DNA of 17,068 bases from an uncultured Victivallales bacterium (GCA_964542845.1 CAZIVM010000040.1:1-17068), one strand, 5' to 3'. Counted from the first letter of the stretch, positions 346-15,746 are shown. Numbers and translations are program-made. Notes: generated by a model not told the origin, from the sequence alone.

Positions 346-382
346 AAATAAAAAAGCTGGACTTGTTTACACAAATCCAGCT
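346..382 (-). terminator. Rho-independent terminator for the minus-strand lipoprotein gene ending at 410
   Basis: Hairpin agctgga-c-ttgt-[ttac]-acaa-a-tccagct (355-382); on the minus strand it is followed by a T7 run (plus-strand aaaaaaa at 348-354). Confidence 0.5.
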
Positions 383-409
383 TTAATCTTTTTGAAAAGA
401 GGAGGTTAA

Positions 410-793
410 TTATTTAACCACGTTTCCAGAGATGTTCACACTGCGAATGCAGAAAATGAATGACCATTCAGATACTTGTGATGTCATATCCAAAACTTTT
501 TTACCACCGAGTTCTTTAGACTTACGAGTCATAATAGGCGCGGTGCTTTGGAGGTTAACAGTATCTTTTAAGAAAGCCAAAGTCCCTGGATTATCAGTAT
601 CACCACTTAATAATGGGAACCAAAGGAAATAGAGACCAGAGTTTTGAACGTTAACGTGAGCGATTTTAGCGCTACCATCGTTAGCAAGTTGTAAATTGTT
701 GATGTAAGGATCTTTCACAACTGTAACAGAAGCACAAGCACTCAACATCGCAGCTGAAGCAACAGCAACTGCCATTAAAAAGAATTTTTTCAT
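410..793 (-). CDS. Small predicted lipoprotein (127 aa), paralog 1 of a tandem pair; family not recognised
   Basis: Six-frame ORF 410..850 trimmed to internal Met (MKKFFLMAVAVASAAMLSAC...) with AGGA RBS 8 nt upstream; signal peptide plus lipobox LSAC; ~40% identical over the core (AHVNVQNSGLYFLWFPLLSGDTDNPGTLAF) to the downstream-adjacent ORF 811..1206. Confidence 0.75.
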   Translation of the reverse strand: MKKFFLMAVAVASAAMLSACASVTVVKDPYINNLQLANDGSAKIAHVNVQNSGLYFLWFPLLSGDTDNPGTLAFLKDTVNLQSTAPIMTRKSKELGGKKVLDMTSQVSEWSFIFCIRSVNISGNVVK

Positions 794-810
794 GATATGC
801 GTCCTTTCCA

Positions 811-1206
811 TTACTTGATTGCGTTTGCGGAAACTTTGTAAGATTTCCATGAGAAGAGGAACGGAATTGGAACCAACAACATCATGCTATTAGGAATAGA
901 AACCATGTCCGTAGCTTGGGTTGCGCCCATCGATTTTGCTTTAGAAGAAACCATGTTTACGGTGCTTTCTAAATCTGTTTTTTCACAGAATGCAATAGAA
1001 CCTGGAGAGGTGCTAGAACCCGTGATTAAAGGGAACCATAAGAAGAACAAACCTTCGTTGGTTGCACTAACGTGAGCAACAGGAGTTCCGCGAGAGGTCA
1101 AAGCTTGTTGGGTCAAGCGTGGAGCATCCACAACCTGAACCGCAGAGCAACCCATCATGCAGCAAACCACTGCAGCCATACCTAAGCTGAGCATTACTTT
1201 TTTCAT
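811..1206 (-). CDS. Small predicted lipoprotein (131 aa), paralog 2 of tandem pair
   Basis: ORF with MKKVMLSLGMAAVVCCMMGCS signal/lipobox, RBS aaaggac upstream; core AHVSATNEGLFFLWFPLITGSSTSPGSIAF aligns with paralog 1. Confidence 0.75.
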   Translation of the reverse strand: MKKVMLSLGMAAVVCCMMGCSAVQVVDAPRLTQQALTSRGTPVAHVSATNEGLFFLWFPLITGSSTSPGSIAFCEKTDLESTVNMVSSKAKSMGATQATDMVSIPNSMMLLVPIPFLFSWKSYKVSANAIK

Positions 1207-1341
1207 TGTAGTCCTTTGGGTTTGAGGTTATCAAGGCAAAAAAACCGTTATTGCCTTCTATTGGTTTACTATACACTTGCTTAGCACAAATGCAAACTTT
1301 TTTATTAGATTTCAGTCAATATTTTATCTTTTTTATCATTT

Positions 1342-2358
1342 TTATAGTTTTTTCGAAGGAATAACCTCAGAAAAACGATATAATTCTTTTATCCCTAATT
1401 TATAATAAGGTTTTTCATCCCAAATATTGCGTTTACCGCGTTCGGAGAAAAATATATCTAATGCGGTGTTCGGATTTTGTTTAGAACGTATTAAAAGACC
1501 GCGCATGTACATTTGCGTGTAAGGCATTGTCCCTTTATCTGTACTACTCACTTCGTATTCCAAAACAGAAAATCCATTGTGTTGACGCTGTTTTGATTTA
1601 ATTTTTTGAACCGTATTACGCGCATTTGAAACAAATCCTTTTTCCATAAAAAACTTAAAAAACTCACTATCACTCTTTTTCGACCACTTTGAATCAAACA
1701 TCATGGGCGCCATTCTTAATATCACGGAGTGATCATTCAACATCGTGTCTGGAATATCAAGACGATATGTCATGTCATAAGCAGCAAACGACATTGGATT
1801 CAACATCAAGTTCCATCGCGAATCTTGCGGTGTAAGCACACGAATCCCTAGTTCCTCATAAGACGATGGACATGAACGCACCTTGAGTTTTCCTCCCACA
1901 CAATCTTCAAAAACTGCGGGAGTATCACGCGTAGCAATCCCCCCCAAATCATGCATCTCTTTCCACAAGTCGCCCCAGTTAAATATGATTGAACGCTCAC
2001 CTTCCTCTGTATAACAAAAATACGAAACATTCATCGGATCTTTGCGTGAAACAGCAAAACCCCCTTTCTCATACACTGCACGTTTATAATTTAACGCATT
2101 GAATGTAATTGGAATATTTAAGGGTTTCACAACCGGCTCGTAATAATAATAGCGTTGATCAGCCGCAACCAAGTTCATCACGCTCGGCATAAACTGCATG
2201 CGTTTGACAACCAAATCGTATCCCATATAAATGCGCGTTTCGTAAACACGCGGAACATCATTACTTATTTCGTCCAGAGGAATTTCCAGACGCCATTCAG
2301 GTGAACTTTGACATCCCATTAACAAAGCCAATGCAACGCCTAACATCCAATTTTTCAT
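1342..2358 (-). CDS. Predicted lipoprotein, 338 aa, unknown function (no recognisable catalytic motif)
   Basis: Long clean ORF, RBS aaggagag upstream of ATG at 2358, N-terminus MKNWMLGVALALLMGC = signal peptide + lipobox; Tyr/Trp/Met-rich soluble domain; co-directional with the two small lipoprotein genes. Confidence 0.8.
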   Translation of the reverse strand: MKNWMLGVALALLMGCQSSPEWRLEIPLDEISNDVPRVYETRIYMGYDLVVKRMQFMPSVMNLVAADQRYYYYEPVVKPLNIPITFNALNYKRAVYEKGGFAVSRKDPMNVSYFCYTEEGERSIIFNWGDLWKEMHDLGGIATRDTPAVFEDCVGGKLKVRSCPSSYEELGIRVLTPQDSRWNLMLNPMSFAAYDMTYRLDIPDTMLNDHSVILRMAPMMFDSKWSKKSDSEFFKFFMEKGFVSNARNTVQKIKSKQRQHNGFSVLEYEVSSTDKGTMPYTQMYMRGLLIRSKQNPNTALDIFFSERGKRNIWDEKPYYKLGIKELYRFSEVIPSKKL

Positions 2359-2554
2359 TCTTAACTCTCCTTTATGTAGGTTTTAGATATGACCAAATTT
2401 TTTACTAATATATCCCTATTCAACACAAAATTCAAGCAAAAACACCACATTAAATTAATTAAATTCACGCACCGCCCTAACACAATCCTTACAAACCAGA
2501 ATTATATTAATGTTATCAAATTCACATCTCATCAATATACATTGGAGAAAATTA
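2359..2554. promoter_or_regulatory. Divergent promoter region between the lipoprotein cluster (-) and pstC (+); contains three AAATTCA(A/C)(G/A) direct repeats and a weak Pho-box-like 18-mer
   Basis: Repeats aaattcaagc (2428-2437), aaattcacgc (2461-2470; 33 bp = 3 helical turns later), aaattcacat (2518-2527); atgttatcaaattcacat (2509-2526) matches E. coli Pho box consensus CTGTCATAAAACTGTCAT at about 12/18 positions. AT-rich, no ORF. Confidence 0.3.
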
Positions 2555-4126
2555 ATGCAAAAATCACGAAATTCACGTCACTCAACGGATCGCTATTTTA
2601 AATGGATTGCGACTGCTGGAGCCCTTACGCTCGTTGCCATCATGGCGGGTTTATTTATTCAGCTGGTCTTAAACGCCCTTCCCGCATTTGAAATTTTTGG
2701 ATTCGAGTTTTTCACATCGACCGAATGGAATCCCGCGCAAGAACAATTCGGTGCGCTCCCTGCCATTCGTGGAACACTATTAACCACGTTTATTGCGATT
2801 CTTATCGGCGTCCCCTCTTCGTTCTTCATTGCTTTTTTGTTAACCGAACTGCTCCCCAGTTGCATTGCAAAACCGATTGGACACGCGGTTGATTTACTTG
2901 CCGCTATCCCATCCATTATTTTCGGTATGTGGGCATTTATGGTATTAATTCCGCTCATGCAACAGTACGTGCAACCTGCATTGCAAACCTCAATCCCAAT
3001 TCATTTAGGCGAAAAACCTTGTTATCATCAAACCGAAAAGGGAGTTCATTTATCAGGCAACAAAGGTTACATGCAAACGCCTCATATTTATTATCTCGAT
3101 TTTGAACAAACCATGACTCTTGCCTTACGTTTTACCCCACAAATTACATCGTCTGCACAGTCAATATATTATAAAGGAGAAGCGGGAATTCAACTCTCGA
3201 TTACACCTTCAGGTCATCTCAATTTTAATGGGGCGATTAGTGAAACAAAAATTGAACATAATGTAACACAAACTTTGATTGCGTCCATCGAAAACAACAC
3301 GCCTCGTCTGTGGATTAACACGCAAGAGACCCTACTTAACACCGCGTTATTTCAAATGCCACAAAATACAACATCGCCTCTCTGGATTGGAAAAAATAAA
3401 GATGGAAATTATCTTAAAGGCAATCTAGAATGGTTGCGATTCTACAATTCAAGTCTTACCCCCAATGAAATTGACGACACATTATTTCAAACCACAGAAG
3501 CGGCAGAAGATGCTATCGATGAACACCGTCTAGAAGTTGCGTGGGAGTTTAGTGGCGAAAACCAAGATAACTGCATCGATCTCGCCTCCTCTCTCCCGCT
3601 CTCTTTTAACACAAAAAAAATCGAACTCAATTTTCTAAAAGAGTCTCTTTTTGCAGGTGATCTCACAGGAAGTGGTACCCTTTCTGCAGGACTGATTCTT
3701 GCCTTCATGATTCTCCCTTTCATCACCTCCGTGATGCGCGATATTTTTATCATGACTCCGCCCGTGATTAAGGAATCCGCCTACGGAATGGGGGCAACCC
3801 CATGGGAAACCACCCTTCATATTACACTCCCGTATGGGATGCAAGGTTTTTTAGGTGCAATATTTTTAGGATTAGGTCGGGCACTCGGCGAGACGATGGC
3901 TGTTCTTTTTATCATTGGGAATGCGCCCTACGCTGGGAGTTCATTATTTGCCCCAGCCACAACCATTGCGTCCACTTTAGCCAATAGCTTTGGTGAAGCA
4001 GATGGTATTTTCAAAAATGTATTATTTGCGTTAGGTCTCATTCTCTTATTCCTCTCGTTTGGGATACAAATCATTGCACAACGTTGGTTAAATAATGTAA
4101 AGAAACAAAATGGAGGTGGTTTATGA
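2555..4126 (+). CDS. pstC: Phosphate ABC transporter permease PstC with a ~220-aa insertion (LamG/ConA-like) in the second periplasmic loop; 523 aa
   Basis: ORF 2510..4126 trimmed to Met at 2555 (GGAGA RBS 8 nt upstream). N-terminal 146 aa and C-terminal 157 aa align with E. coli PstC (TM1-3 ... LAAIPSIIFGMW ... and TM4-6 with EAA loop SVMRDIF..ESAYGMGATPWE..GRALGETMAV). Residues ~147-366 have no PstC counterpart and contain LWIGKNKDGNYLKGNLEWLRFYNSSLTPNEIDD, typical of Laminin_G_3/ConA-like lectin fold. Confidence 0.9.
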   Translation: MQKSRNSRHSTDRYFKWIATAGALTLVAIMAGLFIQLVLNALPAFEIFGFEFFTSTEWNPAQEQFGALPAIRGTLLTTFIAILIGVPSSFFIAFLLTELLPSCIAKPIGHAVDLLAAIPSIIFGMWAFMVLIPLMQQYVQPALQTSIPIHLGEKPCYHQTEKGVHLSGNKGYMQTPHIYYLDFEQTMTLALRFTPQITSSAQSIYYKGEAGIQLSITPSGHLNFNGAISETKIEHNVTQTLIASIENNTPRLWINTQETLLNTALFQMPQNTTSPLWIGKNKDGNYLKGNLEWLRFYNSSLTPNEIDDTLFQTTEAAEDAIDEHRLEVAWEFSGENQDNCIDLASSLPLSFNTKKIELNFLKESLFAGDLTGSGTLSAGLILAFMILPFITSVMRDIFIMTPPVIKESAYGMGATPWETTLHITLPYGMQGFLGAIFLGLGRALGETMAVLFIIGNAPYAGSSLFAPATTIASTLANSFGEADGIFKNVLFALGLILLFLSFGIQIIAQRWLNNVKKQNGGGL

Positions 4127-4989
4127 TTCAAGCACCCATGCGATCTATTTTTCGACGTCAATTCAAAAACTATATCATGATTCTTATCAGTGGAATTGCT
4201 ACGTTGATTGCCGTCGGGATCTTATTCTGGATTATCGCCACCATTATCTATAAAGGATTCCCTGCCATTCATTGGAATTTTTTAACCCAAGTTACCGCAC
4301 CGAGCACGGACCCTGAAGGCGGCATCGCCAACGCCATTTTAGGGACCCTTATGATTATTTGTGTCGGATCATTTATTGCGCTTCCTTGCGGTTTACTCGG
4401 CGGGATATGGCTTTCTGAATTCGGTCGAAGCAGTCATATAGGACACTGGGTCCGTTTTACAGCGAACGTTATGATGGGGATCCCCTCCATTGTGATAGGA
4501 CTTTTTGTTTATGCCATTTTAGTCGTGCCCATGGGATGCGCATCGGGGTTTGCGGGTTCGGTAGCGATTGCGATTTTGATGATTCCCATCGTGATGCGAG
4601 TTACCGAAGATATGTTATCATTAGTCCCTAACACCTTACGCGAATCAGCCTTAGCGTTAGGAATGACGCGATGTCGAACCACATTTGTGATTTTATTTCG
4701 TTCGGCAAAGAGCGGGTTAATCACAGGAATACTCCTTTCAATTGCCCGTGTAGCAGGTGAAACAGCGCCGTTACTTTTTACCGCACAATGTTCTCAATAT
4801 TGGCCTTCAATAAGTTCATTTTTCAGAAGTCCAACAGCGAATATCACGGTCACAATCAACGAATACTTTGGCAATGACCCTAGTCCAATCATGACTGAGC
4901 GTGCATGGGGCGCTGCCCTTGTCATCCTCATCATTATTCTCACCACCAATCTTTCTCTACGTTTTTGCTTCAAAAATAAAACTAACTAA
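4123..4989 (+). CDS. pstA: Phosphate ABC transporter permease PstA
   Basis: 288-aa ORF, start ATGA overlapping pstC stop, GGAGG RBS; 6-TM permease with EAA-type loop ([13 protein letters not shown]..). Confidence 0.9.
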
Positions 4990-4999
4990 GGATTCTATT

Positions 5000-5821
5000 A
5001 TGTCAGAACTTCCGCCACTGAAAAGTCTTACACTCGAACAAATGCCACCGCCACCCACCCTCTCAACTCAACCTAAAATTATCGCTAAAGATCTCAATTT
5101 TTACTACGGTGATCATCAAGCATTAATGAATAATAATCTCACCATCTATGATAAAACCGTAACAGCGGTAATTGGACCTTCAGGTTGTGGGAAGTCGACC
5201 CACCTGAGAACCTACAATCGTATTTTTGAGCTCTACAAGGATTTTCGTGCGGATGGCGAAATTCTTATTGATCACGACAATATTCTCTCGCCTGAGATTA
5301 ATCTTTTGGAATTACGACGTAATGTGGGAATGATTTTTCAAAAACCAACCCCTTTTCCTATGTCGGTATTTGACAATGTCGCTTACGGACTCAATCTTCA
5401 CTACAAAATGGGGAAAAGTGAACTCCAAGATCGTGTCGAACACGCCTTGCGCGGTGCCGCTTTATGGGACGAAGTCAAAGACAAACTGAAAAAACCCGGA
5501 ATGGCTCTCTCAGGCGGTCAACAACAACGCCTTTGTATCGCGCGCGCTATCGCTGTGGAACCCGAAATTCTCCTCATGGATGAACCCACATCGGCAATTG
5601 ACCCTGTCGGCACAGGAAAAATTGAGGACTTAATTTCCGAACTTGCAGAAAAGTTCACCATCGTCATTGTCACGCATAACATGCAACAAGCCGCCCGCAT
5701 CTCCGATTACACTGCATTCTTCTATCAAGGATACATTGTAGAGTACGATAAAACCGACATCATCTTTACCCATCCCAAAAATCTTCGCACAGAATCGTAT
5801 ATTCGCGGTCATTTTGGTTGA
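5000..5821 (+). CDS. pstB: Phosphate ABC transporter ATP-binding protein PstB
   Basis: ORF 4901..5821 trimmed to MSELPP (AAGGA RBS at 4988-4992). Walker [10 protein letters not shown], signature LSGGQQQRL, Walker [13 protein letters not shown]; strong identity to E. coli PstB throughout; extra Pro-rich ~15-aa N-terminal extension ([14 protein letters not shown]). Confidence 0.92.
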
Positions 5822-5877
5822 TTTTCTCAAAAAATGTAGTATGTTAATGATAACCCCCTTAATTGAAGGAATAATTT

Positions 5878-6537
5878 ATGAGCGCACATCTCATTAAAGA
5901 AATCGAAAAATTACAAAAACAACTTGCCGAACTTGCAACATGCGTTGAAGAAAGTTTACGTCAAGCCCTGCATTCGCTAACCACAGGAGATGAAAATCTC
6001 GCGAACATTGTCATCGAAAATGATGATTACATTGATCGTAAAGAGATTGCATTGGAAGAGGAATGTCTAAAAATATTGGCACTCTATCAACCTGTGGCTT
6101 CCGATTTACGCTATGTTATTACTTGTCTTAAACTCAATACAGAACTCGAACGTATCGGCGATCTTGCCGTTAATATCGCCAAACGCGCAAGTGCCATGCA
6201 TAGTTTAAATCAAGAAAATATCAATATCGATTTTTCAACCATGGGGCGACGGACACAAGAATTATTACAGGAAACCCTTGATGCATTGTTCAAAATTAAC
6301 AAAGAAACAGCCGAAAAAGTCATCGCCAAAGACGACGAAATCGATGAAATGCATCATCAAAATACCCTCAAAATTGCTAATCTCGCACAACAATACCCTA
6401 AACAGACTTTTCCGCTTACCTATATTTTAGGCGTCAGTCGCAGTCTTGAACGCATCGCGGATTCATGCACGAACATCGCCGAAGACGTCATTTATATGCT
6501 CAATGGCGCCATTGTCAGACACCAAAACAAGGAGTAA
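5878..6537 (+). CDS. phoU: Phosphate signalling negative regulator PhoU
   Basis: 219-aa ORF with two PhoU repeats (ELERIGDLAVNIAKRA / SLERIADSCTNIAEDV), AAGGA RBS. Confidence 0.9.
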   Translation: MSAHLIKEIEKLQKQLAELATCVEESLRQALHSLTTGDENLANIVIENDDYIDRKEIALEEECLKILALYQPVASDLRYVITCLKLNTELERIGDLAVNIAKRASAMHSLNQENINIDFSTMGRRTQELLQETLDALFKINKETAEKVIAKDDEIDEMHHQNTLKIANLAQQYPKQTFPLTYILGVSRSLERIADSCTNIAEDVIYMLNGAIVRHQNKE

Positions 6538-6543
6538 CACTTT

Positions 6544-7224
6544 ATGAAAGCCCACATTCTCTGCATCGATGATGAACAAGATATTTTAACGGGTCTACGA
6601 TTTACCCTTGAAAAAGAGGGTTATCATGTCGCCACCGCAACTTCAGGTGAAGAAGGTCTTGTCAAAATGCGCGAAAACATGCCCGATTTAATTGTGTTGG
6701 ATCTCATGTTGCCGGGCAAAGATGGTCTTACTATTTGCAAAGAAATTCGTGCCGACTCCAAATTATCTCATATTCCTATTATTATGCTTACCGCAAAGTC
6801 AACCGAAATTGATGTGGTCTTAGGGCTTGAGATGGGAGCAGATGACTATCTCCCTAAACCCTTCTCTAATCGTGTCTTAGTGGCACGCATCAAATCACTT
6901 TTACGCCGTCAATCCACCACTGAATCACAAGAAAACACCATCACACGAGGACCTCTTGTCATTAACCCTGGTCGACGCGAAGTGTTTTATAAAGGCGAAT
7001 CTATCGAATTAACTTACACAGAGTTTGAACTCCTTGCCATGCTTGCAAAGCGCCCAGGGTGGGTTTTCTCGCGCGCCCAAATTGTGAACAACATTAAAGG
7101 GGGCGATTATCCCGTTACCGAGCGATCTGTCGATGTTCAAGTTGTCGGACTCCGCAAGCGTTTAGGTGAAGCAGGCGATTGTATCGAAACCGTTCGCGGT
7201 GTTGGCTACAAATTCAAAGGCTAA
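6544..7224 (+). CDS. phoB: Phosphate regulon response regulator PhoB (OmpR family)
   Basis: 226 aa; receiver domain (DDEQDIL...LIVLDLMLPGKDG..MLTAK) plus winged-helix (LTYTEFELLAMLAKRPG...RGVGYKF); AAGGAG RBS inside phoU end. No phoR downstream. Confidence 0.9.
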   Translation: MKAHILCIDDEQDILTGLRFTLEKEGYHVATATSGEEGLVKMRENMPDLIVLDLMLPGKDGLTICKEIRADSKLSHIPIIMLTAKSTEIDVVLGLEMGADDYLPKPFSNRVLVARIKSLLRRQSTTESQENTITRGPLVINPGRREVFYKGESIELTYTEFELLAMLAKRPGWVFSRAQIVNNIKGGDYPVTERSVDVQVVGLRKRLGEAGDCIETVRGVGYKFKG

Positions 7225-7616: not shown

Positions 7617-7701
7617 TGGTGGTGGGAGGTGGATTCGAACCACCGAAATCGTAGATAGCAGATTTACAGTCTGCCCCCTTTGGCCGCTCGGGAATCCCAC
7701 C
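7617..7701 (-). tRNA. tyrT: tRNA-Tyr (anticodon GTA), 85 nt with long variable arm and encoded CCA
   Basis: Reverse complement reads GGTGGGATTCCCGAGCGGCCAAAGGGGGCAGACTGTAAATCTGCTATCTACGATTTCGGTGGTTCGAATCCACCTCCCACCACCA; near-identical to E. coli tRNA-Tyr in acceptor, D-arm, anticodon loop CUGUAAA and T-loop GGTTCGAATCC. Confidence 0.93.
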
Positions 7702-7905: not shown

Positions 7906-8487
7906 ATGTTAGATCAACTTAATCAATTTTTTGCTGGCGATACCATGGAAGTCGCTTATAAATCCATGGCAATCATCGGAACAGCATTATTCCTCTTATC
8001 CACGTTAATGACTTTTATTGGGAGCTCAACTGATGTCGATGTAGATATCGATAATGATGGCGCCATTGATATTCATCACGATACAGGTTTTGCAGATCTT
8101 AAAATTTTCTCTGCAAAAACCATTATCGCCTTTGTTATGTTTGTGGGATGGGGGGGTATCGTCTTCGGAAACACTGTCTACGGCTTTATTGGCGCTTTTG
8201 CACTCGGAATCTTCATGATGTTCGTGACCGCCTACTTAATTGTCCTAATCTTAAAACTTCAAGAATCTGGCAATATCAACGATGAAGCTTTCGTGGGACT
8301 TACAGGGATTGTTTACATGACCATTCCTGGCGATCGCGCTCATGAAGGAAAAGTACAAGTCACAACAAAATCAGGCATTCGCGAAGTTGCAGCGCTTGCA
8401 GATAAAAAAATAGAAACAGGGACACCTGTCAAAATCAAGTCCAAACACGCCGAGGGCTGTTTTATCGTCGACACCATCGATTCATAA
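7906..8487 (+). CDS. yqiJ: NfeD-like inner-membrane protein (YqiJ family), partner of the downstream flotillin
   Basis: 193 aa; AAGGAGGA RBS; Asp/His-rich N-terminal segment (DVDVDIDNDGAIDIHHDTGF) as in E. coli YqiJ, hydrophobic TM core, C-terminal beta-rich OB-like tail; located directly upstream of an SPFH/flotillin gene as in yqiJK. Confidence 0.78.
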   Translation: MLDQLNQFFAGDTMEVAYKSMAIIGTALFLLSTLMTFIGSSTDVDVDIDNDGAIDIHHDTGFADLKIFSAKTIIAFVMFVGWGGIVFGNTVYGFIGAFALGIFMMFVTAYLIVLILKLQESGNINDEAFVGLTGIVYMTIPGDRAHEGKVQVTTKSGIREVAALADKKIETGTPVKIKSKHAEGCFIVDTIDS

Positions 8488-10329: not shown

Positions 10330-10357
10330 TTGAAATTTTCACGATGTGTATTATATT
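10330..10357 (+). promoter_or_regulatory. Candidate sigma70 promoter for the rnf operon (-35 TTGAAA, 16 nt, -10 TATATT)
   Basis: Hexamers read by eye ~50 nt upstream of rnfA start in an AT-rich 270-bp intergenic region. Confidence 0.35.
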
Positions 10358-10408
10358 ATTAATGTATTTTTTTCATCTACATACCAAACACAAAAACCCG
10401 AGGTGCTT

Positions 10409-11014
10409 ATGGAGTACTACTTAACGATGATGGTGGGCGCGATTCTCGTGAACAACTTTGTCTTATCCAAGTTCTTAGGAATCTGCCCTTTTCTTGGCGT
10501 ATCCAAACGAACTGAAACCGCATTAGGCATGGGAGGTGCTGTCATTTTTGTGATGACCATCGCTTCATGTGTCACATCCCTAATTTATCACTACCTACTC
10601 TCGTATGAGTTTACCGTAGGCGAAAACAAGATGAACTTAGTTTTTTTACAACTTCTAATTTTCATCTTAGTGATTGCTGCACTGGTACAAATGGTTGAAA
10701 TCATTTTACAAAAGGTAAGCCCCAAACTCTATGATGCGTTAGGAATTTTTCTTCCGCTCATCACCACAAACTGCGCCGTTCTAGGCGCCGCCCAACTCAG
10801 CGTAAAATCGGGTTACAGTGTCTTGGACTCAACCCTCTTTGGCTTCTTTTCTGCTATCGGATTTGCATTGGCATTAGTCCTCTTTTCCAGTATCCGTGAA
10901 CGACTCGCCTTTGCTAAAGTCCCACGCGCGATGGAAGGTACCCCTGTTGCTTTAATTACAGCAGGGATTTTAGCGATGGGTTTTATGGCATTTAGTGGTT
11001 TAGTGAAAGTTTAA
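10409..11014 (+). CDS. rnfA: Ion-translocating oxidoreductase complex subunit A (RnfA/RsxA)
   Basis: ORF 10346..11014 trimmed to MEYYLTMMVGAILVNNFVLSKFLGICPF (GAGG RBS), which aligns with E. coli RsxA [28 protein letters not shown]; conserved LPLITTNCAVLG and IRERLA motifs. Confidence 0.9.
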   Translation: MEYYLTMMVGAILVNNFVLSKFLGICPFLGVSKRTETALGMGGAVIFVMTIASCVTSLIYHYLLSYEFTVGENKMNLVFLQLLIFILVIAALVQMVEIILQKVSPKLYDALGIFLPLITTNCAVLGAAQLSVKSGYSVLDSTLFGFFSAIGFALALVLFSSIRERLAFAKVPRAMEGTPVALITAGILAMGFMAFSGLVKV

Positions 11015-11023
11015 GGAGTTGAT

Positions 11024-11893
11024 ATGGAAAACTTACTTATATTTGCAGGGGTTGCACTTCTTGCAGCTGCCGTCACGGGGGCAATTCTCGGAGGTGCAAT
11101 TGCAATCATTGCCCAAAAATTTGCTGTCGAAAAAGATCCACGCATTGATGAAGTGATCGATTTATTACCTGGGGCTAATTGTGGCGGATGTGGTTTTGCT
11201 GGGTGTGGCGATATGGCCAAAGCACTTATACTGGGTAAAATCAATGATCCAGCGAAATGCCCTGCCGCCTCTAACGACGCTGTAGAGAAAATCTCAGAAG
11301 TGTTAGGGTTAATTTCAGAACCCGGCATTAAAAAAGTTGCGGTAGTGGCATGTGGAGGAAACCATGATATGGCGAAAGAGTCAGTGCGTTATAATGGCGT
11401 GGCTGACTGTAAATCGGCTCTCATTGTTCAAGGGGGAACGAAAGGATGTCGATATGGGTGTTTAGGTTACGGCACTTGTGCGCATGCGTGTCCATTCAAT
11501 GCCATTGAGATTAAAAACGGACTCGCCATTGTGCACCCCGACTTATGTGTAGGATGTGGAAAGTGTGTTGAGACATGCCCGCGTAAACTCATTGCGTTAC
11601 GTCATGCGGATGCAGAAGTCCATATTTATTGTAGTTCCCCCGCCAAAGGTGCCGACAAACGCAAAGTATGTAAAGTTGCCTGCATTGGATGTCGCAAATG
11701 TGTCAAAGCTGCTGAAGAAGGTCAAATTGAAATCAAAGGAACCTTAGCCGTGGTGAATTACGCCAACGCACCGAAAGCTGAAATTGTTGAAAAATCAGCA
11801 TGCCCCATGCACTGCATTGGTTTGGCACAAGACTACAAAGCAATTGGTGTTATCCCTGAGAAAAACGAAGCAAACAACGAGGTATCCGCATGA
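11024..11893 (+). CDS. rnfB: Rnf complex subunit B (RnfB/RsxB), long form with additional ferredoxin-type 4Fe-4S domains
   Basis: 289 aa; N-terminal TM helix, CGGCGFAGC cluster motif, then at least three CxxCxxCxxxCP-type motifs (CVGCGKCVETCP, CIGCRKCV, CPMHC). Confidence 0.9.
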   Translation: MENLLIFAGVALLAAAVTGAILGGAIAIIAQKFAVEKDPRIDEVIDLLPGANCGGCGFAGCGDMAKALILGKINDPAKCPAASNDAVEKISEVLGLISEPGIKKVAVVACGGNHDMAKESVRYNGVADCKSALIVQGGTKGCRYGCLGYGTCAHACPFNAIEIKNGLAIVHPDLCVGCGKCVETCPRKLIALRHADAEVHIYCSSPAKGADKRKVCKVACIGCRKCVKAAEEGQIEIKGTLAVVNYANAPKAEIVEKSACPMHCIGLAQDYKAIGVIPEKNEANNEVSA

Positions 11894-13251
11894 AAAAAAT
11901 AGCGCTCCCTAACATTATAGGTAAATTTCCTGGTGGACGCAGCATTCATCAAGGCGAAGAACTCTCTAATCAATTCCCTGTACGTACGCCCCCCCTTTAT
12001 GATAAATACATTGTGGCAGTGCCCCAAAATATTGGGAAACCCCCTCAAATGATTATCGCTAAAGGCGATAAAGTTTTACGGGGTCAACTCATTGCAAAAG
12101 CAGATGGTTTTGTCTCTGCAAACCTACACGCACCCACCAGTGGCACGATCGAAGATATTATCGAGATTCCAAGTGCAACAGGCCCACAAGTTCCAGCGAT
12201 GGTGATTGTTGCCGATGGTGAAGATACGCCCGCGCAACTTCTTGAGCCTATTGAAAACTGGTTAGAATGCGATCCCAAAGTCATTTTAACACGCGTTCAA
12301 GAAGCAGGACTCGTTGGAATGGGTGGCGCGTCATTCCCGACCCATGTCAAACTCTCACCTCCACCAGAAAAACCCATCGACATATTGATTATTAATGCGG
12401 CGGAATGTGAACCTTATTTAACAGCAGATGAACGCGTGATGCTTGAAAATGCAGAGATGGTTGCAAAAGGAATTGCAATGTTTGCCCGTATTTTAGGTGT
12501 TCGTAATGTTTTAGTGGGTGTTGAAGATAACAAGATGTCGGCTATTCTCAAACTGAAAGAGTCATGCGCGATGTACGGCACGACAGTTGTCGAACTCCCC
12601 GTGCGTTATCCTCAAGGTTCTGAAAAACAACTTATCTATGCACTCACCCATCGAAAAGTTCCTGCGGGCGGACTCCCCATGGATGTCGGTGTTGTGGTGC
12701 AAAATGTGGGGACTGCATTTGCATTGGCCGAAGCGGTGATTTTAGGGAAACCGCTTTATGAACGCATCGTAACCGTTACAGGTGAACAAGTGGTGAATCC
12801 AGGAAATTGGAAACATCGTATTGGCACCCCTATCTCAGAAGTCCTTAAACTTGCAAGAGGCGTTAAAAACCCTGTATGCAAAGTTATTTTAGGGGGGCCT
12901 ATGATGGGCTTTGCGCAACGCTCTCTAGATGCAACAATCTGTAAAAACACCAGTGGCGTTCTTGTCTTAGACGAAACCATTGCCAAACAATACACCTCCG
13001 AACCCTGTATTCGATGTGGGCGTTGCGTTGATGGATGCGTGATGAATCTCTTGTGCTGTACGATTAGTGCGGCGGTCGATAGCAACGATTTTGAAATGGC
13101 GGAACAACTTCATGTCATGGACTGCGTCGAATGTGGATGCTGCGCTTACATGTGCCCTTCATTCCGTCCATTAGTTCAACACATGCGTCGCGCAAAAGGC
13201 GAAATTCTCGCACAACGTCGCAAAGCAGCAGAAAATAAAGAAGGAAAATAA
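11890..13251 (+). CDS. rnfC: Rnf complex subunit C (RnfC/RsxC), NADH/FMN-binding with two 4Fe-4S motifs
   Basis: 453 aa; GMGGASFPTHVK, IINAAECEPYLTADERVM, MQNVGTAFA and CIRCGRCVDGC / CVECGCCAYMCP align closely with E. coli RsxC; start overlaps rnfB stop (ATGA). Confidence 0.9.
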   Translation: MKKIALPNIIGKFPGGRSIHQGEELSNQFPVRTPPLYDKYIVAVPQNIGKPPQMIIAKGDKVLRGQLIAKADGFVSANLHAPTSGTIEDIIEIPSATGPQVPAMVIVADGEDTPAQLLEPIENWLECDPKVILTRVQEAGLVGMGGASFPTHVKLSPPPEKPIDILIINAAECEPYLTADERVMLENAEMVAKGIAMFARILGVRNVLVGVEDNKMSAILKLKESCAMYGTTVVELPVRYPQGSEKQLIYALTHRKVPAGGLPMDVGVVVQNVGTAFALAEAVILGKPLYERIVTVTGEQVVNPGNWKHRIGTPISEVLKLARGVKNPVCKVILGGPMMGFAQRSLDATICKNTSGVLVLDETIAKQYTSEPCIRCGRCVDGCVMNLLCCTISAAVDSNDFEMAEQLHVMDCVECGCCAYMCPSFRPLVQHMRRAKGEILAQRRKAAENKEGK

Positions 13252-13252
13252 T

Positions 13253-14353
13253 ATGTCAGATCAACCCTCAATCATTTTACCCAACCCCGAACACTTAATA
13301 GCGAGTAGTTCGCCTCATATTCACGACGATGGCAAAGCACAAAGCGTTCAACGCATTATGCTTTGTGTGATTCTCGCACTTCTTCCTGCTTGCGGTGCGG
13401 GGATTTACTATTTCGGTATTCAAGCACTTTATACCCTTCTTCTTAGTGTAGCAGGGTGTGTATTTTTTGAATGGATTTGGGCGTATGTAACCAAACAAAA
13501 GAAGCAAACCATTAACGACTTCTCTTGCATTGTGTCAGGAATCCTCCTCGGAATGAACCTCTCGGCAAACGTTCCATGGTGGATTGCACTCGTCGGGGCA
13601 TTTGTTACGATTTGGATTGGAAAGATGCTCTATGGCGGCATCGGTTATAACCCATTCAATCCAGCGATTGTCGGACGCGTCTTTATCCTTCTCTCGTTTC
13701 CAAGTCAAATGACCACTTGGTTTTGGCCACGAACCTACACTACTCAGATGATTAATAATATGATTACATCCCCTACGCCAGTTGTCGTGAGCGAAACCAT
13801 GCCTGCTGAACTCATTGTCGGGGCAACCCCACTTGGCTTAGTTCATAAAGCCGACTTAGCCTCCCTTCAACCCGGTGTCCTTTCTGATTCTGCGTATTGG
13901 GACTACTTTCTAGGGAATATGCCCGGATGTTTAGGCGAAACCAGTGCCATCGCTATTTTGATTGGCGGACTCTTCCTCATCATGCTTCAAATCATTAAAT
14001 GGCAAGTCCCTGTTGCCTTTTTAGGGACCATCGCAATCTTTACGGGTATCATTCACTTTTGCGACCCCACCATGACGCCAGATCCTTTATTTCATATTCT
14101 CACGGGAGGCGCAATGTTAGCGGCCTTCTTTATGATTACAGATATGGTCACAACGCCCGTTACAACCTCAGGCGCCATTATTTTTGCTGTCGGCTCGGCC
14201 ATTTTGACCGTAGTCATTCGTGTTTGGGGCGGTTTCCCCGAAGGTGTAAGTTTCTCAATCCTCTTAATGAATGCATTAACCCCATTGATTGACCGTTACA
14301 CCAGACGTCGCCCCTTTGGATATCGTAAACCTGTTAAAGGAGGTGCCAAATGA
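13253..14353 (+). CDS. rnfD: Rnf complex subunit D (RnfD/RsxD)
   Basis: 366-aa polytopic membrane protein, position and size match RnfD; conserved GG..NPFNPA, TPLG motifs. Confidence 0.88.
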   Translation: MSDQPSIILPNPEHLIASSSPHIHDDGKAQSVQRIMLCVILALLPACGAGIYYFGIQALYTLLLSVAGCVFFEWIWAYVTKQKKQTINDFSCIVSGILLGMNLSANVPWWIALVGAFVTIWIGKMLYGGIGYNPFNPAIVGRVFILLSFPSQMTTWFWPRTYTTQMINNMITSPTPVVVSETMPAELIVGATPLGLVHKADLASLQPGVLSDSAYWDYFLGNMPGCLGETSAIAILIGGLFLIMLQIIKWQVPVAFLGTIAIFTGIIHFCDPTMTPDPLFHILTGGAMLAAFFMITDMVTTPVTTSGAIIFAVGSAILTVVIRVWGGFPEGVSFSILLMNALTPLIDRYTRRRPFGYRKPVKGGAK

Positions 14354-15060
14354 GCGCCAATAAACCCTCTTTAGTTAACTTAGCGATTCGACTCGCTCTT
14401 TTTGCGGCTATTGCGGCCATTGTACTTGCGGTCACCGATCGCCTCACCTTGCCTGCACGCATTGCCACTCAAGAAGGTGTCGAAAACAACGCCATCAAGT
14501 TGGTTTTGCCCGACTTCGAAAGAACCTCTTCTACTTTCTATATTAATGAAAAGGGAGAACCCTGTTTTGAAAAACCTTTCGACAACGCATGTGCTTTCAC
14601 CCCGGCATGGAATCAAAATAAACTCGTAGGCTTTGCATGCAAAGGAACGAGTAATAAAGCGTATGCAGGGAACCTTACAGTGATGTTTGGTTTAGAAATT
14701 GATGGGACAGTAGGGGTTGTTTCTGTCATTGCACATAATGAAACCCCCGGACTTGGGACCATTGAAACCAATCGTCAAAAACAAAAAACAATCTACAATC
14801 TTTTAGATACCGATACAGAAAAAGTGGTTCCCAACGCATATCTCGATCAGTTTAATGGTAAAAAAATTACCTCGATCGAAGAATCTTTTGCATGGAAAAT
14901 TAAAAAAGATGGTGGTAGTTTTGAATTCAAAGGAGGCGCTACAATGAGTATGCGCGCCATCACAGATGCTGTTTATGAAACGGCACGCACGTTCATTGCA
15001 AATAAAGAATCCATTATCCAGTTTATTCAAAAAGAAAACCCTAATATGGAGATACAATAA
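14350..15060 (+). CDS. rnfG: Rnf complex subunit G (RnfG/RsxG), FMN-binding
   Basis: 236 aa; N-terminal TM anchor; FMN-attachment motif GGATMSMRA (S/T-GAT); ATGA overlap with rnfD. Confidence 0.88.
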
Positions 15061-15746
15061 TGAGTCAACTTACTAACTTTACCAAAGGATTATGGCGCGA
15101 AAATCCCGTGCTTGTTCTTTTATTAGGGATGTGCCCAGCACTTGCAACAACATCAAGCGCATTAAATGGTTTGGGAATGGGTATTGCAACACTATGCGTA
15201 CTGGTTGGCTCAAATACTGTGATTTCGTTAATCAAACCTTGGGTTCCTGCACAAATACGTATCCCCTGTTATATTGTTGTGATTGCCACTTTTGTGACAG
15301 TTATCGACTTATTAATGCAAGCTTATGCCCCTGTTGAAATCTATAATGCGTTGGGTATCTTTATTCAACTTATTGTTGTCAACTGTGTTGTTTTAGGTCG
15401 CGCAGAAGCCTTTGCAAGCAAAAACACCGTGTTTTCATCCATTATCGATGGGATAGGCATGGGCGTAGGTTTTACATTTGCACTCGTGCTTTTAGGCGGA
15501 CTCCGCGAGTTTACCTGTGCAGGAACGATTTTTGAGATTAAAATCATCACAGAATGGTCTCCAGATGCAGCGAATAGCTTAATGACACAAGCCCCAGGTG
15601 GCTTTATCATGTTAGGGCTTATTCTTGCAGCAATCAACTGGCATAATCATCGTAAAGCGGCCAAAGAAGGTCGAATTTATACCCCCCCTGCTGAACTTAG
15701 TTGTCGCAATTGCAGAATCTGTAATCTCGACGACATCAACTCTTAA
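15060..15746 (+). CDS. rnfE: Rnf complex subunit E (RnfE/RsxE) with unusual Cys-rich C-terminal tail
   Basis: 228 aa; [31 protein letters not shown] align with E. coli RsxE; last 20 aa end in ...[19 protein letters not shown] (CxxCxxC), absent from E. coli RsxE. Confidence 0.88.

Follow-up and report, generated by a model that had tools for sequence, protein, structure and literature searches.

Two adjacent genes in a 17,068-nucleotide stretch of DNA from an uncultured Victivallales bacterium (GCA_964542845.1 CAZIVM010000040.1:1-17068; this whole stretch is called the window below) encode small predicted lipoproteins, LP131 and LP127, which belong to an unnamed family within a known fold group, outside every existing Pfam family. 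The reading that we favor, held with slightly better than even confidence, is that the two genes form a self-contained operon, found only in Lentisphaerota, of lipoproteins that have the YbjQ/RcsF-type fold and associate as a hetero-oligomer on the membrane, while LP338, encoded just upstream on the same strand, is an unrelated neighbor. To our knowledge, almost no envelope proteins of the Lentisphaerota, including gut Victivallales, have been characterized experimentally. A preliminary description of this DNA had reported three consecutive minus-strand lipoprotein genes, each with a ribosome-binding site (RBS), spanning positions 410-2358, and the three gene calls hold:

1342..2358, minus strand: LP338, 338 aa; N-terminus MKNWMLGVALALLMGC; lipobox LMGC (LLMGC), Cys17; open reading frame (ORF) with RBS
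811..1206, minus strand: LP131, the A-type (upstream) member of the pair, 131 aa; N-terminus MKKVMLSLGMAAVVCCMMGC; lipobox MMGC (CMMGC), Cys20
410..793, minus strand: LP127, the B-type (downstream) member of the pair, 127 aa; N-terminus MKKFFLMAVAVASAAMLSAC; lipobox LSAC (MLSAC), Cys20

A GGAG or AAGGA motif lies 6-10 nt 5' of each of the three starts, and 17 nt separate LP131 from LP127. For LP127, the mechanical ORF starts at 850, as does the gene call in the database (P0002, 146 aa); both are over-extended and overlap the end of LP131. Homolog alignment places the true start at the MKK encoded at 793, 19 codons later, where all homologs begin.

LP131 and LP127 are clearly paralogous, with 34% identity over their full length by BLASTP (E 6e-25) and 36% by MAFFT, and the motif AHV..N.GL(F/Y)FLWFPL..G is common to both. 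The paralogy, the motif, and the 17-nt spacing thus stand as first described, although the identity is slightly lower than the figure of about 40% given then. Copy numbers in related genomes were obtained by scanning six-frame ORFs in all fetched loci with hidden Markov models (HMMs). Same-strand tandem pairs, with gaps of roughly 17-70 nt, occur in 23 of 35 species loci and in four further contig groups. One copy is found in each of 10 more divergent loci (L036-L045), in L008, and in L030, but in the last of these the contig ends 363 nt upstream. In a neighbor-joining tree of mature sequences, the upstream genes make up clade A, the downstream genes clade B, and the single-copy genes a third clade; LP131 and LP127 fall into A and B, respectively. 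Clade A proteins have in common a C-terminal loop, ...IPxPxPFLFYWK, and clade B proteins are shorter, with ...SQYSEFGxIF. LP131 accordingly carries the aromatic hairpin GLFFLWFPL plus the A-specific loop MMLLVPIPFLFSWK, and LP127 is without the Pro/aromatic loop of the A type.

Across 27 paired loci, pairwise identities among A proteins track those among B proteins closely (r = 0.93), and both average 64%; within a genome, A and B are only 27-48% identical to each other. The clade structure and this correlation argue that the pair is a conserved two-gene unit of Lentisphaerota, co-inherited in fixed order, and the congruence of the A and B trees points to vertical inheritance. The tandem duplication first proposed for the two genes is therefore right in kind but is ancient rather than local, since the A and B clades extend across about 27 genomes. 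Locus L009 is an exception. Its two tandem copies (5749-6585) share 66% identity and are each other's neighbors in the tree (the L009, L010 lineage), marking an independent and more recent duplication of the same family. In the single-copy proteins, B-like motifs in the N-terminal part (AHINAQNWG) occur together with an A-like aromatic loop, a mixture that suggests an ancestor of this form and loss of the loop in B.

Lipoprotein assignments were based on sequence pattern and conservation. LP338, LP131, and LP127 each begin with a signal peptide, having a basic n-region and a hydrophobic h-region, that leads into a lipobox. In the small lipoproteins the lipobox Cys is invariant, far above chance, in 48 of 48 diverse homologs, and Gly precedes it in at least 90% of them. 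All three products look like lipoproteins, with lipidation predicted. Profile scans against Pfam, NCBIfam, PHROGs, and PADLOC found no family at threshold for any of the three proteins, the few family-library matches being confined to signal peptides, so the earlier statement that none could be assigned to a named family is borne out.

A profile built from the two paralogs retrieved 24 proteins. A profile of 20 sequences retrieved at least 219 clusters at E <= 1e-3, none of them with a Pfam domain, and the only source names among the 219 were "hypothetical protein" of Victivallis, Victivallales, or Lentisphaeria. A scan for loci with an alignment of nine B-type sequences as query, limited to one genome per species, returned 35 loci, and 35 of 35 belong to Lentisphaerota (Victivallales, Victivallaceae, Lentisphaeria, Oligosphaeraceae, and Lentisphaeraceae). 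LP127 is 44-52% identical to B-type proteins from Victivallales genomes. For annotators, the result is a family to name, with at least 219 clusters and usually a co-inherited A/B pair. The pair is also present in a metagenome-assembled genome of a cultured species, Victivallis vadensis (locus L031), and so presents a small and tractable experimental target.

Genomic context was compared across 39 non-redundant related loci. A pstC, pstA, or phoU gene, or a gene resembling LP338, stands beside the pair in none of the 39. The few pstB-type matches near the pair are ABC ATPase domains of a UvrA-like neighbor, and at L025 a phoB-like regulator lies about 5 kb from the pair, with no pst genes there. 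When all neighboring ORFs were clustered, no gene family accompanied the pair outside groups of close relatives. The recurrent neighbors vary by lineage (UvrA, a thioredoxin-reductase-like flavoprotein, a class-III aminotransferase, a family-5 solute-binding protein) and are unrelated housekeeping genes. The lack of linked neighbors and of pst genes in related loci argues that the pair is an autonomous unit. The neighborhood comparison across relatives that the preliminary description had suggested thus finds the two-gene pair kept, but neither the trio nor its adjacency to pst. The proximity of the pair to pst genes in the window is a peculiarity of this lineage, and the trio, first presented as a unit, is not a functional cluster: LP338 has no homolog and is absent near the pair in all 39 loci.

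AlphaFold2 predicted a structure of LP131 with confidence from a 20-sequence alignment (pLDDT 81.8, pTM 0.71). In the model, the signal helix leads into a first strand whose start lies one residue past the lipid Cys. The next element, a long hairpin (42-55 / 58-63), carries the conserved aromatic run FFLWFPL at its tip; after it come a short strand, a helix (79-92), and a second long hairpin (97-109 / 118-130), whose loop in A-type proteins is the Pro/aromatic segment. Cys20, His45, Gly52, Gly63, and Ser126 are invariant among the 48 homologs, and Tyr54, Pro59, Asp76, and Asn128 are nearly so. Comparison of the LP131 model with solved structures gave the following scores:

FvfA (5evg): 7.6
DUF74 (3qkb): 7.5
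UPF0145/YbjQ (2gtc, 1y2i): 7.5, 6.3
RcsF (2y1b): 6.6
DUF1471 domains (2m2j, 4evu, 2ma8, 2jna, 2ma4, 2noc): 4.5-6.0
Flagellar-ring lipoprotein YecR (7bgl): 5.2
Archaeal Se-binding protein (2jz7): 4.5

The model shares its fold with YbjQ_1/UPF0145 (PF01906) and with the folded domain of RcsF, and it indicates that the family has the YbjQ/RcsF-type fold. A Foldseek search of LP131 against PDB and BFVD returned no match at E <= 0.001, and searches of PDB sequences with family profiles returned chance-level matches only. None of the 48 members reaches the gathering threshold of YbjQ_1 (PF01906; best E 0.026, for one member) or of DUF4156 (PF13698; one member at E 0.022). Alignment of the family to YbjQ by hhalign gave a probability of 55% with a single sequence and 35% with a two-sequence profile, over 42 C-terminal columns only; the YbjQ sequence used was verified against PDB 1y2i. 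The aligned region is the C-terminal helix-strand-strand, in which ...LGATxTxDL...VSGNAVK of the family meets ...LGADAVVGID...VSGTAVK of YbjQ. The family is possibly a remote homolog of YbjQ.

Proteins with this fold resemble the small lipoproteins in some respects and differ in others. YbjQ/UPF0145 and DUF74 proteins (2gtc, 1y2i, 3qkb) have the long strands in common with the family, but YbjQ proteins have no signal peptide or lipobox, whereas the family is predicted to be exported and lipidated and has aromatic loops and the A/B pairing. In RcsF, an outer-membrane lipoprotein that serves the Rcs phosphorelay as its sensor, the N-terminal linker is long and flexible; in the family, by contrast, the first strand begins right after the lipid Cys. 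RcsF shows no sequence match to the small lipoproteins. It relies on redox-active disulfide bonds (PMC4092069), and its disulfide cysteines have no counterpart in the family, where the only invariant Cys is the lipidated one and others are sporadic. The DUF1471/YhcN proteins (BhsA, McbA, SrfN, YdgH, YahO) are small and periplasmic, have the same fold, often occur as several paralogs per genome, and are linked to stress and biofilms (PMC4092069). They differ from the family in being mostly not lipidated, though secreted, in their length of about 60-70 residues, in their restriction to Enterobacteriaceae, and in lacking both sequence similarity to the family and the aromatic hairpin. FvfA, a Francisella virulence factor (5evg), shows only 8% identity, has a poorly defined function, and is not known as a paired system. 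Literature searches on FvfA and on Lentisphaerae lipoproteins yielded nothing of use for FvfA.

On the reading we favor, A and B would each be exported, lipid-modified on the invariant Cys, and anchored in the membrane, with the folded domain following directly after the Cys. The domain would be an alpha+beta unit of about 105 residues with long strands, of the type seen in YbjQ/UPF0145, DUF74, RcsF, DUF1471, and FvfA; a strongly aromatic hairpin (G-L-Y-F-L-W-x-P-L) would be carried by this domain, and a second aromatic, Pro-rich loop (I-P-x-P-x-P-F-L-F-Y-W) by the A type and the single-copy form. An ancestral single gene would have been duplicated before the sampled Victivallales-like lineages diverged, and the copies passed on together in fixed order. 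A segment such as LFFLWFPLI would partition strongly into a membrane interface, by about -6 to -7 kcal/mol on the Wimley-White scale. Because no linker follows the lipid Cys and the loops favor the interface, the domain probably lies on the membrane surface, with its loops in the bilayer or in a protein interface. Solved structures of YbjQ/UPF0145 and DUF74 are listed as pentamers (PMC4092069). With homo-pentamers as the closest soluble relatives and a single-copy ancestor replaced by two obligatorily co-inherited paralogs, a hetero-oligomer of A and B, derived from a homo-oligomeric ancestor, is the most economical reading, and the case may illustrate how a homo-oligomer turns into a hetero-oligomer after duplication. 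Such a complex would sit flat on the periplasmic face of the membrane, its aromatic loops dipping into the bilayer or a partner protein, and its role is likely to be structural or sensory in the envelope rather than metabolic.

Two points weigh against this reading. Shared ancestry accounts for the conserved order of the genes and for the correlated distances, which are no proof of physical contact. Proteins with the same fold also differ widely in function, so that the fold alone predicts no role: stress sensing by RcsF, the stress and biofilm links of DUF1471 proteins, and virulence in the case of FvfA are unrelated roles. A bolder proposal, which we consider quite unlikely, is that A and B, as lipid-anchored subunits with the YbjQ fold, build a ring-shaped hetero-oligomer whose aromatic loops enter the outer membrane or block one of its proteins. 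Such a ring would serve as an envelope sensor or as a factor in outer-membrane biogenesis, specific to Lentisphaerota and functionally analogous to RcsF, but evolved independently in the PVC group.

Features surrounding the three genes bear on how they may be transcribed:

353..384, minus strand: strong hairpin resembling an intrinsic terminator, with a 14-bp stem and a T run behind it, 26 nt past the LP127 stop
1207..1341, minus strand: LP338-LP131 spacer, 135 nt, with a sigma-70-like site, TTTGCA-17-TATAGT, at 1296..1268
2359..2554, no strand: LP338-pstC divergent region, 196 bp, with a candidate operator repeat inside

The hairpin at 353..384 is likely the end of the LP131-LP127 transcript. 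The sigma-70-like site was assigned by consensus match only, and no terminator-like hairpin was found in the 135-nt spacer that holds it; from these two features, the pair may have its own promoter, with read-through from LP338 also conceivable. The 196-bp length first reported for the divergent region is confirmed, the start of pstC being likely the ATG at 2555, after a GGAG. Nothing credible emerged from Rfam scans of the region. At 99-133 on the minus strand, about 220 nt downstream of the pair's terminator, lies another strong terminator-like hairpin, with a 16-bp stem and a T run. In the interval between the two hairpins no ORF exceeds 43 aa and Rfam gave no credible match; the stretch before the hairpin at 99-133 may represent a small transcript or encode a small protein.

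The position of the trio had also led to the suggestion of coregulation under phosphate limitation, by which all three products would be phosphate-starvation lipoproteins, driven by the PhoB-like regulator encoded in the window from the divergent pst region and acting in scavenging or envelope remodeling. We judge this unlikely. The divergent region that LP338 and pstC have in common does contain an imperfect 20-nt direct repeat, ATTAAATTAATTAAATTCAC (2449-2468) and ATTAATGTTATCAAATTCAC (2506-2525), 57 nt apart and just upstream of pstC, and the repeat (2449-2525) may be a candidate operator. Inside the repeat, however, TTAAATT half-sites occur at a spacing of 9 bp, whereas the spacing typical of OmpR/PhoB-type regulators is 10-11 bp. 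Clustered AAATTCAC motifs occur in the same region, but over the window as a whole the motif is not above chance (3 found against 1.55 expected; 37 of 200 shuffles reach 3). Although there is no terminator-like hairpin between LP338 and the pair, the 135-nt spacer upstream of the pair contains a promoter-like site, and although phoU and a phoB-like regulator are encoded downstream, the pair is next to pst genes in 0 of the 39 related loci. Conservation thus lends no support to phosphate coregulation of the pair; the trio is tied to phosphate uptake by adjacency alone, a tempting link that can be removed as unsupported for the pair. A different origin for the small lipoproteins, as surface-exclusion lipoproteins of the Bor or Cor type from phages or mobile elements, would draw on a weak PHROG match of LP127 to the Cor superinfection-exclusion protein (E 0.026). 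That match spans residues 1-29 only, which is the signal peptide, and the BFVD fold search gave nothing significant, so a Bor/Cor phage origin is effectively refuted; mobile-element genes are likewise not conserved near the pair, and the vertical inheritance read from the congruence of the A and B trees also speaks against it.

LP338 is best regarded as a genuine lipoprotein gene but an orphan, apparently lineage-restricted, that merely adjoins the pair in this genome. Both a word-indexed search of 5.8 billion clusters and an exhaustive phmmer search of 1.84 billion representative proteins returned only the self-match, a search of PDB sequences returned no meaningful match, and in hhalign comparison with the pair the signal peptide alone aligns. 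An AlphaFold model from the single sequence is unusable (pLDDT 33) and mostly beta strand. PstS proteins, the phosphate-binding components, are often lipoproteins of about 300-350 aa. LP338 is similar to some of them in size and lipoprotein nature, it adjoins pstC, and the window contains no pstS, pstC being the first gene of the operon; it might therefore be a highly diverged stand-in for the absent PstS. This we regard as highly improbable, since PstS families are large and well conserved whereas exhaustive phmmer found no relative of LP338, no periplasmic-binding-protein family in Pfam or NCBIfam matches it at E <= 1, and its PDB sequence matches are negligible. The model, weak evidence at its low confidence, is mostly beta strand and not the alpha/beta of binding proteins, and a pstS gene may sit elsewhere in the genome. 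The same lack of homologs among 1.84 billion representatives, together with the unconfident structure prediction and a codon score (+0.07) well under that of core genes (0.25-0.59), might instead mark LP338 as a non-functional, chance or decaying ORF, which is very unlikely in our view. An open frame of 338 codons would hardly arise by chance at 39% GC, and LP338 has an upstream GGAG and a canonical signal peptide with lipobox. Its codon score is positive in frame and strongly negative in the other two frames (-0.78 and -0.83), and the conserved small lipoprotein genes also score low (0.11 and 0.14). We accordingly flag LP338 as a true orphan.

The pst operon (2510-7224) has the order pstC-pstA-pstB-phoU-phoB-like regulator, with neither pstS nor phoR in the window. 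PstC (2555-4126, plus strand) has 523 aa instead of the usual ~300, and a Laminin_G_3 / concanavalin-A-like lectin domain of about 140 aa (PF13385, E 2.2e-11) lies between the two halves of its permease match, an unusual architecture for an ABC permease. No close relative turned up when metagenomes were scanned with this PstC. One further AAATTCAC motif lies at 2569, inside pstC.

Beyond the operon, a tRNA-Tyr gene is found at 7617-7701 on the minus strand. The segment 7906-10135 on the plus strand encodes a membrane protein in the NfeD position (7906-8487), with no Pfam match at threshold, and then a 533-aa SPFH/flotillin protein (PF01145, E 1.3e-28). A full rnfABCDGE cluster, named from gene order and sequence with no family-library scan, occupies 10346-15746. 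It is followed by thiG, and three of the related loci also have strong thiG matches.

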